This document shows, piece after piece, positions 10,926-48,340 of a stretch of DNA of 64,000 bases. The notes beneath the pieces are model-generated. The model was not told the origin of the DNA and made no database searches. It worked only from the letters and a program-made list of their open reading frames with translations. The stretch covers positions 4,544,001-4,608,000 of the forward strand of contig OZ240241.1 in NCBI GenBank assembly GCA_965198115.1. The letters run 5' to 3'. A program made the position numbers and the translations under genes. The DNA comes from Candidatus Latescibacterota bacterium (lineage in GTDB: Bacteria; Latescibacterota; UBA2968). The stretch's first letter is position 1. Every line of letters starts with the position of its first letter.

Positions 10926-11744
10926 TCATCTGTGGTTGCTTCTGGCGTGCTCGGGTGGCAGCAAGGGAGGTTTTGGCTGGATGATCATGCGCCGTTCATC
11001 CGTAAGACGCTCGATCAGTTCGGTCGAATGCTCGTACCCGTAGCGATTGTTCGCCCAACCCGAGCCGTAGCGGTAGAGCATCATTCTACGTTCGCCGTCG
11101 TTCGTTCGGAAACCAGCGCCGTGAGCGACGCAATCGACGAACAACGCTGCATCGCCTGCCTTCAGGGGCACTTCGATTGCCCCCTCCACCGATTCCAGTG
11201 ACCCCGGTCTGTCCGCGAAGGCCGGATGGATGATGTTCGACTTGTGAGACCCCGGAATCAGCATCGTCGGTCCATCCCCCGGTCCGATATCCGTCAGTGC
11301 CAGCAGGACATTGATTTGACCACACCGGAATTCTTCGTCGTGATAGCGATATTGTGTCCGGATACGCCGCTTGTGTGCACCCGAGTGCAGCGCCAGCCCC
11401 GTCTTAGACTGTCGGACGTTGACAAACGCCTCGTCGATGAACAGCCCGTCCGTTCTCCCTACGAACCGCCGCATAAAGTCGATCCTGGATGGATGGTCGA
11501 TCATCTTTTCGAAGACGTTGCCAGCCTCGAAGATGTTTTCGATCACCAGGTTGTCGCCGGCGCTGGGTAGCGTATGCAGCGGGCCTTTCCACTCGTCTGG
11601 CCCCATCGGTAGAATGTCGTCGACAATCTCGTTCATCGCGATCAGATCGTCCTCGTCAACCGCCCCTGCGAGCACGATGTAACCCCGCAGATCGAACAGA
11701 TACTTTTCCATCTCCGATGGCACATTCGCTTCGATCGCTTTCAC
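10926..11744 (-). CDS. PhyH-family Fe(II)/2-oxoglutarate oxygenase (HSG variant)
   Basis: YLFDLRGY, LHSGAH, ALTDIGPGDGPTMLIPGSHK, distal His in DCVAHG. Confidence 0.88.
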   Translation of the reverse strand: MKAIEANVPSEMEKYLFDLRGYIVLAGAVDEDDLIAMNEIVDDILPMGPDEWKGPLHTLPSAGDNLVIENIFEAGNVFEKMIDHPSRIDFMRRFVGRTDGLFIDEAFVNVRQSKTGLALHSGAHKRRIRTQYRYHDEEFRCGQINVLLALTDIGPGDGPTMLIPGSHKSNIIHPAFADRPGSLESVEGAIEVPLKAGDAALFVDCVAHGAGFRTNDGERRMMLYRYGSGWANNRYGYEHSTELIERLTDERRMIIQPKPPLLPPEHARSNHR

Positions 11745-11755
11745 ACGTGCCTCGT

Positions 11756-12593
11756 TCAGCCCTGCTTGTCGTAGTCGAAAGCTTCGGCTTCTTCGTAGAT
11801 CGACGGCTGACCCGGCGGTGTCTTGGGCGGCAACGGCTGCACGATCTTTCGCCGCTCGGGTGTCAATCTCGCGATCAGCTCCGGTGATGGCTGATAACCG
11901 TATCGATCCCACCCCCAATGTGGTCCGTATCGGATAATGGCGATCCGTCGCTCGCCATCGTTGATTCGCTCCGCCGATCCGTGGGCACAGCAATCGACGA
12001 AACACAGCGCGTCACCCGCTTTGTAGTGCACTTCGACCGCGCCCGTCACATCTTCCAGCGACTTGTTGCCTTCGTCACTGTGAAAAGCGGGATGGATCAG
12101 GTTGGACTTGTGGCTGTTGGGTAAAATCATCGTCCCGCCATCGCCGGGACCCACATCCGTCAGCGCGAGCAGGATATTAATCTGCCCGCAACGAAACTGG
12201 TCGTTGTGAAAGCGATACTGGGTCCGGATCCTTCGCTTGTGCGCTCCCGAATGTAAACGCGTTGCGGCTCCCTTATCACGCACATCCACGAACGACTCGT
12301 CGATGAACAGTCCGTCGTCTCCACCCACGAACCGATTGATGTGGTCGATCCACGACGGGTTGTCGATGAGCCGCTCAAACGGCTCTCCCATCTCGAACAC
12401 CTGGTGAATGAATGTGTTTGGCGTTCGTAACCTTCGGCGACCGACGAACCCAACCCCGCCACTCGCCCGGGTCCATATCCGTATAGTCGTCGACGAGGGC
12501 GTTCAGCTCCACCAGATGATCCGCATCGACCGCCTCCTCGAGCATCAGATAGCCACGAAGGTCGAACAGGTATTCTTGCAATTCAGTCGGCAA
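11756..12593 (-). pseudogene. PhyH-family oxygenase (HSG variant), frameshifted by a 4-bp duplication
   Basis: TTG start after AGGAG; YLFDLRGY in ORF 12375, remainder in ORF 11756; GAAT duplicated at 12406-12413. Confidence 0.85.
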
Positions 12594-12619
12594 TGTTTCT
12601 CCTAATGAAAAACCCAGGG

Positions 12620-12914
12620 AACCACGGATGAACACGGATAGACACAGATGTCTAAGAACTAAGCTTTAGGCGGTGAAAGCAAGGGTGCGGTACCTGATCC
12701 CGAGCCTAAACAACACGTCTTTTGATCCCTAGCCTCGGTTCACCGAAATTGAGTATCAGTCCGACACCCACTCCAGAGGCTCGGAGGTAGTTGATGAGCT
12801 GTGCTTCGTGGATGTTGGTTATTTCCTTGGCGACCTTGAAGTGGCTGCTGCACGCGGAAGCCCCTTCGGACTCTTCGCCGAGAGATCCGTGTTCATCCGT
12901 GTTCATCTGTGGTT
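12620..12914. repeat. Cassette bounded by inverted triplets of a 10-bp repeat, enclosing a GxxExxY remnant
   Basis: AACCACGGATGAACACGGATAGACACAGAT (12620-12649) versus ATCCGTGTTCATCCGTGTTCATCTGTGGTT (12885-12914). Confidence 0.85.
12706..12840 (-). pseudogene. C-terminal remnant of a GxxExxY (PD-(D/E)XK-type) protein
   Basis: KVAKEITNIHEAQLINYLRASGVGVGLILNFGEPRLGIKRRV resembles the family C-terminus; the GxxExxY half is missing. Confidence 0.85.
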
Positions 12915-13594
12915 CCGCTCGTTATTGCAGAGAGATCTTGAAGAGACCCAATGATGAAGTCGGGATCGGGAATCCCTTCTTTACGCGCCACACCATCTCG
13001 ATTGAGCCAGGCTATGCGTAGTCCTGCGCGTTTGGAGCTGACGATATCATCCTCCTGCGAGTCGCCAACGTAGAGAATGCGTTCGGGTGCGAGACCGAGA
13101 GACACGAGGGCTGGATCGAAGATTCCGGGGTTGGGCTTGTAGCACCGGGCCGATTCGGAGCTGACGACAAGCTGGAAGGAGAGGTCGTTCCTGGCGAGCG
13201 CTGCGTAGAGGTGGTCGTTATCTGCGTTGGATACCACGCCGTGAGGGAGGGACAGACGATTCAACACCGGCTGCACGTCATCGTATACGGAGACCTTGCC
13301 GAGCAGATCGAAGATCCGATCGATGTATCCTTCCGTCCGACTATCGAGCCCCAACTGCTGAAAAACTCTGCCTAGGCTGACGTTGTTCACTGTTCTGAAA
13401 TTCTCAAACGCCCCTTCACGAAGCATCGGGAAGAAATAGCGGTCCCAAACCTTCAGAAGACCTTTCCCGTCCAGATCGAGGCCATGATCGTTCGCGATCT
13501 CGTCACAGACGTCGTAGAGGCAATCCATCCCACCCGCGAACAGCGTCCCGTACCCATCGAACAGCACCGCCTCGATTCTCAAATCGCTCCCCAC
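12893..13594 (-). CDS. HAD-family hydrolase (haloacid dehalogenase-like)
   Basis: VLFDGYGTL, VVSNAD, YKPNPGIF, YVGDSQEDD; the stop codon lies inside the 10-mer repeat. Confidence 0.9.
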   Translation of the reverse strand: MGSDLRIEAVLFDGYGTLFAGGMDCLYDVCDEIANDHGLDLDGKGLLKVWDRYFFPMLREGAFENFRTVNNVSLGRVFQQLGLDSRTEGYIDRIFDLLGKVSVYDDVQPVLNRLSLPHGVVSNADNDHLYAALARNDLSFQLVVSSESARCYKPNPGIFDPALVSLGLAPERILYVGDSQEDDIVSSKRAGLRIAWLNRDGVARKEGIPDPDFIIGSLQDLSAITSGTTDEHG

Positions 13595-13690
13595 GGCTTC
13601 CTTCGCGTCGCCCGGCCTTCGTGTTAGTTCTTCCTGAGCTCGTGAAAGCTTTGATCGCTCGTCACGGGCACGGGTCGCCCTTCCAAAAAT

Positions 13691-15110
13691 GGCTCTATCC
13701 GGGTTTCTCAACGGTGAAACTATAGAATGACAAGGTCATAGATCGTTCCCTACGCTTGGTTGTGTGTGTAGGACAATCAAAGCGAAGGGGGTGCGACCTA
13801 TGACCGGGAGCAGATTACTATCGAAACTGCTGAGATTCAAGGGGTTCCGTGTTGTCAGCTGGTGGTTTGAGGGGAGAAGCTGCTTCGTCATCGCCGTAAA
13901 GCCACATAAGAATGGTTGTTGTTGTCCGGAGTGCGGCCGTCGAGGTAAAATCGTCCGCACAATGCCCCATCCGCGTCGGTGGCGTGACATTCCGGTGTGC
14001 GGGTGGAGGGTCTGGCTTCTCTACCATCCTCGGGAGATTCGGTGTCCTACCCACGGTCGTGTGGTCGAGGAGATTCCGTGGGCGGAGCGGTTCTCTCGGG
14101 TGACGTATCGCTTCGAGTATGCCATGCTGCGCTACTGCCAGACCATGACGCAGAAGGCGGCGTCCGAGTTGCTGCGCATCTCTGCCTCGACGCTGTCGGA
14201 TCTCCTTCACCGATCCATCACGCGGCTTCGTGAAGGTCATCGTATCCGAGGGCTCAAAACCATCGGGATCGACGAGATCTCCTACGCCAAGCGTCACAGG
14301 TACGCCACGCTCGTTTACGATCTGGACCGCTCCTGCGTGGTGTGGGTTGGCCGCGGCAGGGCGCGTAAAACGATCGATCGGTTCTTCACAGAGGCTCTCA
14401 GTCCCTACCGGAGATCCAAGATCGAGTGGGCCTGCTGCGACATGAGCGAAGCTTACATCGGAGCCATCCAGGAACACTGTCCGAATGCCAAGCTGGTCCT
14501 CGATCGCTTTCACATCGTCAAGGCTCTCAATGCCGCCGTTGACGAGGTCCGTAAGGACCAGTGGCGTAAAGCTGCCCCGGATGAGCGCAAAGCCATGAAG
14601 GGCCTCCGATGGCTCCTCTACCGGCACTCAGCGACACGCTCCAGAGGGGATACTCGGACACTCAAAGCACTGGAGAAGGCGAACTACCGAATCTATAGAG
14701 CCTGGAGACTCAAGGACGAGTTCGAGCAGTTCTGGGAATACAAAGCGCCCTGGGCTGCCGAACGCTTCCTGAAATGCTGGACGACGTCCGCACTCAGAAG
14801 TCGACTTGAACCCCTGCGAAAGTTCGTCAGGACCCTGCGACAGCACTTCTTCGGCGTCCTCGCATTCGTGAACACGCGTCTTACCAACGCCATCGCCGAA
14901 GGCCTCAACCGAATCGTCCAAATCGTCAAGAACCGAGCCAGCGGATTCCGCACACTCGACGCATTCAACGATATGATCTTCCTTACCGTCGGAGACATAA
15001 ACATCCCTGAGCAGATTCCGAAGAGGTTCCGCACACGCTAACCGCGCCCCCATGCCAGGAACCACGGCACCTTCACCCACTTCAGCTCGTTGAGAGATCC
15101 GGATATAGCC
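13691..15110 (+). mobile_element. ISL3-family insertion sequence
   Basis: IRs GGCTCTATCCGGGTTTCTCAAC / GTTGAGAGATCCGGATATAGCC; flanks CCAAAAAT and ACAAAAAT (target duplication, 7 of 8 identical). Confidence 0.92.
13800..15041 (+). CDS. ISL3-family transposase
   Basis: CPECG zinc finger, IGIDEISY, CCDMSEAY, LDRFHIV, TNAIAEGLN. Confidence 0.95.
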   Translation: MTGSRLLSKLLRFKGFRVVSWWFEGRSCFVIAVKPHKNGCCCPECGRRGKIVRTMPHPRRWRDIPVCGWRVWLLYHPREIRCPTHGRVVEEIPWAERFSRVTYRFEYAMLRYCQTMTQKAASELLRISASTLSDLLHRSITRLREGHRIRGLKTIGIDEISYAKRHRYATLVYDLDRSCVVWVGRGRARKTIDRFFTEALSPYRRSKIEWACCDMSEAYIGAIQEHCPNAKLVLDRFHIVKALNAAVDEVRKDQWRKAAPDERKAMKGLRWLLYRHSATRSRGDTRTLKALEKANYRIYRAWRLKDEFEQFWEYKAPWAAERFLKCWTTSALRSRLEPLRKFVRTLRQHFFGVLAFVNTRLTNAIAEGLNRIVQIVKNRASGFRTLDAFNDMIFLTVGDINIPEQIPKRFRTR

Positions 15111-15871
15111 ACAAAAATGCCCACTTCCCCACGTCACACGTCGATGCTCTCACGAACCCATTGATGTAGGACCGGCGCAGCCGATCGGTCGTGTTGGGCT
15201 TCGATCCGTGCACCGAATACGAAGTGAACATCACTACGTCTCCGGGGGCACCTTCCATCGGGACAGCCTTCGCAACGTCGACGTGGTCTTCGATCTGTCC
15301 CTTCGCGTAGCGTTTGACCTTCAGATTCCCCAGCTTGTGGCTCTCTGGCACGATATGCAGGCAGCCGTTCGCCACTGTCGCCTCATCGACCACGATGATC
15401 GTCTGTACGTAGTTGTTTACCTGGTCTCGAAACGCCGGCTGTCGGACGGATGTCTTGGTGCCACGGGAATGAGATGTCGCCACCGGGCATTTTAAAGTTG
15501 ATCTGATTGATGTATTGCTTCAGCGATCGGCCGATCAGTGGCTCCAGCAGAACAGGAAATTTCGTGCTGTTCCGAATCTCTTCGAACGCAGGATGAAGGA
15601 GCGCTGGCCACTGCACTTTCCGCAGATATTTGACCGCCTCCGGCCCGAACATCGGTTCAGGAGTCTGAAGATGGACGTGCACTTCGGACCCCTTGCCGTG
15701 AAGCACGTTCTCCGGCAGGTCCGTTCGGGCGGCGAGTTCGAGAATGTAGGCATAGCCTTCTCGGAGGCGGTCGATCTCCCCTTCATCGAACACATTGCGT
15801 GCGATGAAATACCCGCGTTCTCGGAAGGATGCCACATCCGTTTCAGATAGCGTCACCAATCGACCATATCC

Positions 15872-35278: not shown

Positions 35279-35360
35279 GCCACTGAGGTCACTGAGAAAA
35301 ACCCCGAAGTTCTGGATCAGGCGAGTCCCGATCCTCAGTGTTTTCCGTGTCCTCAGTGGC
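35279..35360. repeat. Empty inverted 9-mer tandem-repeat cassette
   Basis: GCCACTGAGGTCACTGAG ... CTCAGTGTT TTCCGTGTC CTCAGTGGC. Confidence 0.8.
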
Positions 35361-35377
35361 CGTCTTTTGGTTTTTTT

Positions 35378-47252: not shown

Positions 47253-48216
47253 ATGAAAATCGGTCTCGTCATCAGACCCTTCACCGACGACAACCTCAAG
47301 ACAGCGCTCCAGATGGACGTCAAAGATGTCATCACGACGCTTCCAGGGGATTGCCGCGGCGGGCGTATCTGGGATTTCGAAGACATCTTGCGTCACAAAA
47401 AGCGCATCGAGGACATAGGGCTTCGTTGGTCCGTCGTCGAATCGGTGCCCATCTCCGACGCCGTCAAACTGGGTCTGGACGGGCGCGACGAGGAAATCGA
47501 CGACTACTGTCAGACGATTCGCAATCTCGGTGCGGCCGGCATTCCGACGATGTGCTACAACTGGATGGCGGTATTCGGTTGGATGCGGACGTCGCTCACG
47601 ACGCGCACGCGTGGTGACGCGCTCGCGATTACGTACGATCATCGCGAAATGGAAAATGCACCGGAGATAACGGAGTACGGTGAGATCAGCGAGGAAAGGT
47701 TGTGGGAGAATCTCGAATACTTCCTCAAACGGGTCATCCCCGTCGCCGAGGAAGCAGGCGTCAAGCAGGGCATGCATCCGGATGATCCGCCGATGGGACC
47801 GATTTCGGGGCGTCGCTCGCATTATCACCAGTCCCCAAGCGTTCGACCGGCTACTCGACCTGGTCCCCAGCGGGTTCAGCGGACTCACCTTCTGCCAGGG
47901 CAACTTCAAGGCAATGGGCGTCGACATCGTCCAGAACATCCGCCACTTCGGTAACAAGGGCAAAATCTTCTTCGCGCACTTTCGTGACTTGCAGGGCCAG
48001 GTCCCGGCGTTCAGCGAGTCGTTTCACGACGACGGCGAAACCGATATGGCCGCCTGCGTGAAGGCTTACGACGAGATCGATTTCGACGGCGTCATCCGTC
48101 CCGACCACACGCCGACCTTCGCCATCGACAAAGAAGAAACCGGCGGCTACAATTTCCTCGGCCGCCTCTTCGCCGTCGGCTACATGCGCGGTCTGATGCA
48201 CGGCGTAGAAACCTAG
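47253..48216 (+). pseudogene. uxuA: Mannonate dehydratase, frameshift near 47805
   Basis: WSVVES, CYNWM, LEYFLKRVIPVAEE, HPDDPP, HFRD, RPDHTP, GRLFAVGYMRG; extra T in ATTTCGG. Confidence 0.9.
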
Positions 48217-48340
48217 ACCACGGAATACACGGAAGAAACCAAACTACAGATGTGTAGTCGCAGCTCGAACTTACTCCCCGAATAGGGCCCGGGGCCCCTC
48301 TTTACCCACAACTCTCCGTGTTCTCCCTGTTCTCAGTGGC
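48217..48340. repeat. Empty inverted 9-mer tandem-repeat cassette
   Basis: ACCACGGAATACACGGAA ... CTCCGTGTT CTCCCTGTT CTCAGTGGC. Confidence 0.75.

Follow-up and report, generated by a model that had tools for sequence, protein, structure and literature searches.

A short cassette between the genes for a HAD-family hydrolase and a PhyH-family dioxygenase was found in the window, that is, the whole stretch of 64,000 nucleotides that was analysed. We consider it just probable that it represents the relic, shortened by internal deletion, of a GxxExxY cassette, an element that is likely selfish and whose predicted nuclease would recognise its own arrays. Such a cassette is a single gene for a protein of about 120 aa with a predicted PD-(D/E)XK fold, placed between inverted heptamer arrays that repeat every 8-10 bp, and it sits between a stop codon and the next RBS. 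The layout, its class-wide enrichment, the arms matched to protein clades, the empty and differently filled alleles, one copying to a new junction and a series of decay stages were all observed directly. The protein family (TIGR04256/PF13366) is already known, and the novelty is the cassette system.

Structure of the cassette in the window

The features of the locus (window 11756..13711) are listed below from the upstream to the downstream host gene.

12893..13627, minus strand: HAD-family hydrolase, upstream host gene; last codons and stop from the left arm; start codon uncertain, ORF to 13711
12885..12916, minus strand: left arm, a GG-AAC head followed by three 10-bp units (core CACRGAT)
12841..12884, minus strand: eroded interior, degenerate GxxExxY-motif remains flanked by two deletions relative to the congener
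12706..12906, minus strand: remnant ORF of 66 aa, matching TIGR04256/PF13366
12650..12705, no strand: spacer of 56 nt between nuclease stop and right arm, mostly different from the congener's 64-nt spacer
12618..12649, plus strand: right arm, inverted copy made up of a head and three units of 10 bp; its end lies immediately outside the PhyH RBS
11756..12593, minus strand: PhyH-family dioxygenase, downstream host gene; TTG start at 12593, AGGAGA RBS at 12598-12603

The preliminary description, made from the DNA letters alone, had reported three 10-bp copies facing three inverted copies. The arms are complementary at 28 of 32 positions in register, a value that none of 60 shuffles of 12300-13200 reached (maximum 24), and over 36 nt (12618-12653 and 12881-12916) the inverted arms are 86% complementary; the three units of each arm are degenerate around the CACRGAT core and not identical. 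The left arm includes the HAD stop codon (12893-12895), which the cassette indeed supplies as had been stated, and also the ATG of the remnant ORF (12904-12906). The opposite end, placed about 27 bp before the next start in that description, was measured as 24 nt before the TTG at 12593 if the arm is counted from 12618, and as 26 nt if it is counted from 12620. It was also correct that only the 3' part of a GxxExxY gene lies between the arms and that no target duplication is visible at the locus.

The remnant ORF covers TIGR04256 profile positions 74-115 of 116, with 43.4 bits against a cut-off of 35, and matches PF13366 with 39.1 bits against a cut-off of 22. Its residues 23-64 represent the C-terminal third of a TIGR04256/PF13366 GxxExxY protein, in which the K, QxxxY and NFG are retained. 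In the eroded interior the catalytic Asp region is absent and the Glu of the E-x-K motif is substituted; the GxxExxY motif is not intact, and a degenerate 27-nt piece of it is probably left. A full-length gene with intact GxxExxY and D..E-x-K motifs is present in relatives and not in the window copy. No sigma-70-like promoter was found in 12400-13800. Short-read contigs (two runs of one sample, which is probably the window's own source and hence not independent) show no difference from the window over 11700-13700, which speaks against an artefact of assembly.

The PhyH gene behind the cassette is frameshifted by a 4-nt duplication (12406-12413) and is in frame in the congener G001 and other relatives. 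Upstream of the HAD gene, an ISL3 transposase lies beside another PhyH gene split over two frames (window 13764-15041 and 15082-15859).

The HAD-PhyH junction in related genomes

The HAD gene was located in 26 of 30 family genomes. In 16 genomes of genus g4 it is joined straight to PhyH, and in G007 a 13-nt spacer separates the two genes, giving 17 clean empty junctions; in G018 the junction is empty and PhyH is truncated. The same cassette with a nearly full-length gene occupies the junction in the congener G001. Behind the HAD gene, G012 carries a solo arm of the window's type, which again provides the stop codon, G009 an unrelated 7-bp inverted array, and G010 a short palindrome. The remaining 4 of the 26 genomes are not syntenic at the junction. 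Three other repeat occupants were seen there in other genera (L041, L042 and L045), so that the junction acts as a hot spot of unrelated repeat families; four kinds of repeat were observed at it in all.

Compared with G001, the window copy has two deletions of about 96 and 111 nt, with end-points that depend on the alignment, and the congener's copy is about 207 nt longer, so that the earlier view of a decayed copy holds. In G001 the gene lacks an in-frame ATG, and the Phe normally found in the GxxExxY motif is replaced by Ser, so that this copy may be decaying as well. Between the window genome and G001, four-fold sites are identical at 36/79 positions in HAD, 33/89 in PhyH and 4/18 in the remnant, while each arm is identical at 29/32 positions and the remnant at 36/44 aa. 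Because arms and amino acids are conserved while synonymous sites are nearly saturated, gene and arms would have been constrained for most of the divergence between window and G001, and the deletion in the window copy would be comparatively recent. Hypermutation beside the arms was considered and is not claimed; synonymous sites are nearly saturated anyway.

Survey of GxxExxY loci

GxxExxY loci with a profile match were collected (171), and 159 were used after 12 had been dropped for short flanks or partial matches. Inverted arms were called where an inverted match between the 250-nt flanks scored at least 12. They were found at 118 of the 159 loci, a sample that over-represents one clade and relatives, with 41 loci under the threshold; the control rates were 18/300 for long ORFs of the source genome G000, 3/105 for distal windows taken at these loci and 10% among 6000 cross-locus pairs that were sampled. 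The preliminary description had proposed to test GxxExxY genes for such arms and to look for empty orthologous sites in relatives; both the enrichment at intact genes and the empty sites were found. Among loci from other phyla, taken as the best 80 of 595 matches to one clade, 62 of 71 had inverted arms. Direct repeats between the flanks, which represent local duplications, occurred at 62 of 159 loci.

The arm unit reads C-R-C-N-R-A-[T/G/A] with a period of 8-10 nt; it was typed in 135 of 159 loci, 7 of which carry a different unit. In 55 long-flank cassettes, with crude ORF calls, the distance from a co-oriented stop to the start of the left arm behind it has a median of 10 nt (34/46 within 45 nt), and that from the end of the right arm to the co-oriented start after it a median of 22 nt (30/34 within 60 nt). 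The gene is present in 1-6 copies per genome, rare on plasmids (7/72,556), and was found in none of 50,697 phages and on no viral contig. Near-identical GxxExxY proteins occupy unrelated junctions, and the occupied junctions have no obvious common sequence beyond a stop codon and an RBS. Among the sampled loci no within-genome burst of near-identical nuclease copies was seen, apart from one local pair.

The predicted protein and its match to the arms

The predicted structure has a PD-(D/E)XK core (pLDDT 95.8), and its nearest structural neighbours are Cas4 SSO0001, BpuSI and Hjc, which at 17-20% identity and with Z in the range of the common arrangement indicate the fold and not the substrate. 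With the Cas4, RecB-like and Hjc nucleases (Foldseek E 5e-4; VIA Z 8.6, rmsd 3.6, 98 aligned) it has the fold and the D, E-x-K and QxxxY motifs in common. Since D60, E70, K72, Q84 and Y88 are conserved in 158-159 of the 159 loci, intact members are likely active nucleases. A sequence search of the PDB gave nothing significant, PADLOC gave weak matches only (Cas4 and PDC-M36A, with RTasPDDEXK in 1/15), and T7 endonuclease I, at E 0.39, was not taken as evidence of a relative.

The seventh base of the arm unit needs 8 changes on a quick tree of 109 proteins, compared with 31 after shuffling; the unit type follows the protein clade and not the host. Asn13 was present in 66 of 76 T-type loci and in none of 33 other loci. 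An independent-pairs test of Asn13 against the seventh base gave 1.4-1.5 pairs in the same direction and 0 in the opposite direction; with 2-4 independent pairs, a quick tree and the exclusion of 50 of the 159 loci, whose type was missing or ambiguous, it was underpowered and not significant (p 0.5-1). For the second base of the unit, no protein residue that tracked it was found across the 159 loci.

Gene-less arms in the source genome

Five GxxExxY loci are present in G000 and three of them are broken. Two are intact, with 9-bp A-type and 8-bp G-type arms respectively; the others are a remnant with an 8-bp arm, a scrambled gene with a 9-bp G-type arm, and the window's locus with 10-bp T-type arms. 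The genome also contains more than 150 gene-less arms of four types, and one GxxExxY locus matches each type. A strict pattern gave 68 A9, 59 G9 and 26 T10 arms, and separate patterns gave 67 G8 and 42 T10 arms, with none in the reversed genome. The window copy is probably the dead master of about 26-42 T-type (10-bp) arms, since it is the only GxxExxY locus found in G000 with arms of this type.

A strict array scan of G000 returned 244 arrays (23 in the reversed genome), of which 173 are intergenic and 152 of these are solo, meaning that there is no facing partner within 800 nt. For 98 of the 152 solo arms the head is no more than 45 nt from the gene boundary behind it, and for 8 it is that close to the boundary in front. 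GxxExxY genes are the only genes identified inside facing arm pairs of G000, and genome-wide arm counts range from 4 to 189 among genomes. The window itself has further gene-less arms (35279-35361, 48216-48330 and 49495): one inverted pair is of the 9-bp G type, another pair is mixed and one arm is solo.

Of 143 solo arms in G000, 118 follow the G-rich strand, compared with 576/1156 for unbiased crude ORFs and 39/45 for Y1 transposase genes; a strand bias of like kind has been reported for IS200 (accessible text of PMC3971601). It was not reproduced in relatives (42/93 in G022 and 29/49 in G004), in a weak test that used the first 100 listed of 153 (G022) and 128 (G004) matches, with tandem hits collapsed, and a coarse skew map from twenty 20-kb samples. 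The bias, seen in G000 only, suggests a possible link to replication forks. The GC skew of G000 is a mosaic with several sign changes, and the genome has 75 PF01797 matches, many of them near-identical IS200-type copies. A link of the arms to IS200, four-helix-bundle or DUF559 genes in G000 was rejected, as no such arms adjoin them.

Movement and decay in genus g4

Two sites in genus g4 were compared among close relatives. Of 17 genomes at site A, 2 are filled, 2 are empty and 12 differ in the upstream gene; in the remaining one only the 7-nt arm head is left, fused to the RBS. At site B, before an N6-methyltransferase gene (13 genomes), 3 genomes hold a cassette of the G9 clade and 4 one of the A9 clade, 2 have gene-less inverted pairs and 2 head-only scars joined via short microhomology; of the last two genomes, one is empty and the other shows a partial arm together with another array. 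Occupancy is thus patchy, and one clade replaces another among genomes whose flanks are 90-98% identical; the clade swap at this DNA methyltransferase locus may be a block exchange.

G016 and G020 carry a second copy of the cassette immediately after the stop codon of the neighbouring gene (in G016 with 93% aa identity, in G020 as a fragment), which is absent from the other 15 genomes. An A-rich stretch is common to the donor flank and some empty targets of this neighbouring-junction copy, and the microhomology reading is based on three or four junctions. By eye, no target duplication was seen between filled and empty alleles in close relatives. The alleles form a decay series from full cassette through gene-less pair and solo arm to head-only scar.

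Proposed explanation and alternatives

In the explanation that we propose, the cassette would be transcribed from the host operon and its protein would bind the phased heptamers in double-stranded DNA. The bound nuclease would nick or cut near the arrays, and host repair via short A-rich microhomologies could then place further copies, of the whole cassette or of its arms, at other stop-codon junctions or, alternatively, delete the cassette imprecisely, with no target duplication either way. A bolder version, which we put forward as possible rather than probable, is that GxxExxY proteins drive an as yet undescribed class of mobile DNA. These would be the smallest self-recognising nuclease cassettes, reading a phased heptamer via a tunable residue at the end of helix 1, cutting near replication forks, being copied to stop-codon junctions by host repair and leaving genome-wide families of oriented repeats, with the window holding the dead master of one.

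The main rival, which we regard as unlikely, is a domesticated or autoregulatory unit whose protein uses the arrays as operators or binds them in the service of the host, for instance in DNA repair or chromosome organisation, the arms being binding sites moved passively by host recombination. The identity of arms and remnant to G001 where four-fold sites are 22-46% identical, the low copy number, the near absence from plasmids and phages and a resemblance to the RAYT pattern (accessible text of 10.1101/119735) all agree with it, and the conservation of arms and protein amid near-saturated synonymous sites would fit a long residence or a host-useful role equally well, which counts against the selfish reading. 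The scarcity of the gene on plasmids, the negative result for phages and the lack of a within-genome burst among the sampled loci count against it too. However, a domesticated unit does not readily account for the patchy occupancy and clade replacement amid near-identical flanks, the copying to a new junction, the wide range of arm counts among genomes and a gene that is so often broken (3/5 loci in G000).

The arms could instead pair in the operon mRNA as a long stem cut by an RNase such as RNase III, with the nuclease as a passenger. The cassette is predicted to fold with its arms paired (z -4.4), as the preliminary description had suggested in noting that the arms can form a hairpin, and it lies between cistrons with which it is mostly co-oriented (30/55, crude ORF calls). 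But the mismatches favour the G:U pairs of neither strand, 152 of the 173 arms in G000 have no facing partner, the unit type tracks the protein clade and an Rfam scan of the cassette gave no match, which makes this RNA-level reading improbable. Because A/G exchange between the arms is symmetric (71 against 75 wobble-compatible mismatches) and solo arms are in excess, a double-stranded protein site is favoured over an RNA stem, and binding of a protein to the units is more likely the conserved feature than hairpin pairing. We give little credence to a free-standing homing endonuclease, which would cut a specific target in empty alleles and be copied in by gene conversion with the arms as by-products. 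Such an enzyme would suit the repeated filling of the same junctions, with two clades at one site and four repeat kinds at the HAD-PhyH junction, as well as the lack of target duplication; it would leave hundreds of gene-less arms unexplained, and it is hard to reconcile with near-identical proteins at unrelated sites and with junctions that share so little sequence. Very improbable, in our judgement, is that a host transposase (IS200/IS605, IS630 or other) mobilises the cassette as a non-autonomous MITE, with the GxxExxY gene as captured cargo. The terminal-inverted-repeat layout and the IS200-type strand bias of solo arms in G000 (118/143 beside 39/45) point that way, whereas there is no target duplication, no such arm was found within -600/+1000 nt of the 51 Y1 (PF01797) transposase genes in G000, no genes other than GxxExxY were identified inside facing arm pairs, and the arm type tracks the nuclease clade.

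Relation to known systems

The GxxExxY cassette works most like a REPtron, yet on the features tested it belongs neither to the REP-RAYT systems nor to IS/MITE or homing elements. As described in the accessible text of PMC3733652, PMC3116915 and 10.1101/119735, REPtron/TIRtron and REPIN-RAYT systems also have a low-copy chromosomal enzyme gene flanked by inverted cognate repeats, more than one group of repeats in a genome, each group close to the enzyme that belongs to it, and gene-less doublets and singlets in extragenic space. A REPtron feature, a cognate repeat that flanks the enzyme gene and is dispersed extragenically, was found for GxxExxY cassettes. RAYT is a HUH/Y1 transposase whereas GxxExxY is a PF13366 protein with a predicted PD-(D/E)XK fold, a REP is a self-complementary palindrome whereas the arm is a tandem heptamer array, and doublets dominate most REP classes whereas singlets dominate here (152/173). 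The ShiLan HNH element, a homing insertion, is likewise a small nuclease in a non-splicing insert tolerated by the host gene (accessible text of PMC11855218), but the GxxExxY cassette differs from it in fold, in having no one conserved target and in arms that spread on their own.

Inverted ends round one ORF, internally deleted derivatives and both empty and filled alleles are also known from classical IS and MITEs. The cassette nevertheless has no DDE, HUH or recombinase domain, no multi-copy expansion of its gene, no target duplication, and imprecise scars in place of a precise empty site, which bears out the earlier statement that it is not a classical IS. ORF-bearing intervening sequences of 23S rRNA carry a small ORF, for four-helix-bundle proteins, between inverted arms that can pair in RNA, with a stem cut by RNase III. 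GxxExxY cassettes, which can fold as well, differ from these in sitting in mRNA junctions and in showing no G:U asymmetry as a sign of selection for RNA pairing, and both four-helix-bundle genes of G000 are without such arms.

PF13366 (PDDEXK_3) has been described as a family of unknown function with multiple transfers (accessible text of PMC3424549), a GxxExxY gene has been noted near a CRISPR-linked RT (accessible text of 10.1101/2021.01.26.428298), and GxxExxY is mentioned in the accessible part of PMC12085832. MacGregor 2015 (PMC4679880) deals with a different repeat, with no occurrence of GxxExxY in the accessible text. In the searched literature, which excluded supplements and most subscription papers, no link between the GxxExxY/TIGR04256 family and flanking repeats was found, nor any mention of TIGR04256 by name.

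Through these cassettes, a widespread orphan family (TIGR04256/PF13366) gains a specific candidate substrate, and an origin is offered for intergenic repeats scattered through genomes in numbers that can exceed 150. The same design recurs round this nuclease family in many phyla, which makes it likely to be a form of selfish DNA spreading its own repeats through genomes. Should the nuclease recognise its own heptamer array, with a single residue tuning a single base, it would represent a sequence-specific enzyme of about 120 aa and a transposase-free route of mobility. The window locus is a relic, and its value is that the whole life cycle is visible in close relatives.

Additional observations

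A 14-nt conserved motif (GCCCTATTCGGGRA) follows 40 of the 173 G000 arms, mostly 22-23 nt on and after a non-conserved spacer (e.g. window 48216-48330). The exact motif occurs 36 times in G000, once in G001 and in none of 29 other family genomes, and it could be a second protein site. In the scrambled GxxExxY gene of G000 (G000:C1:1497257-1497610; L004-L007) the segments are out of order, one arm remains and a transposase-like ORF lies at the 5' side. Many cassettes (L009, L013, L018, L021, L033, L183, L187 and L191) contain local direct duplications bounded by arms, and in one of them a 9-bp unit is repeated about 17 times.
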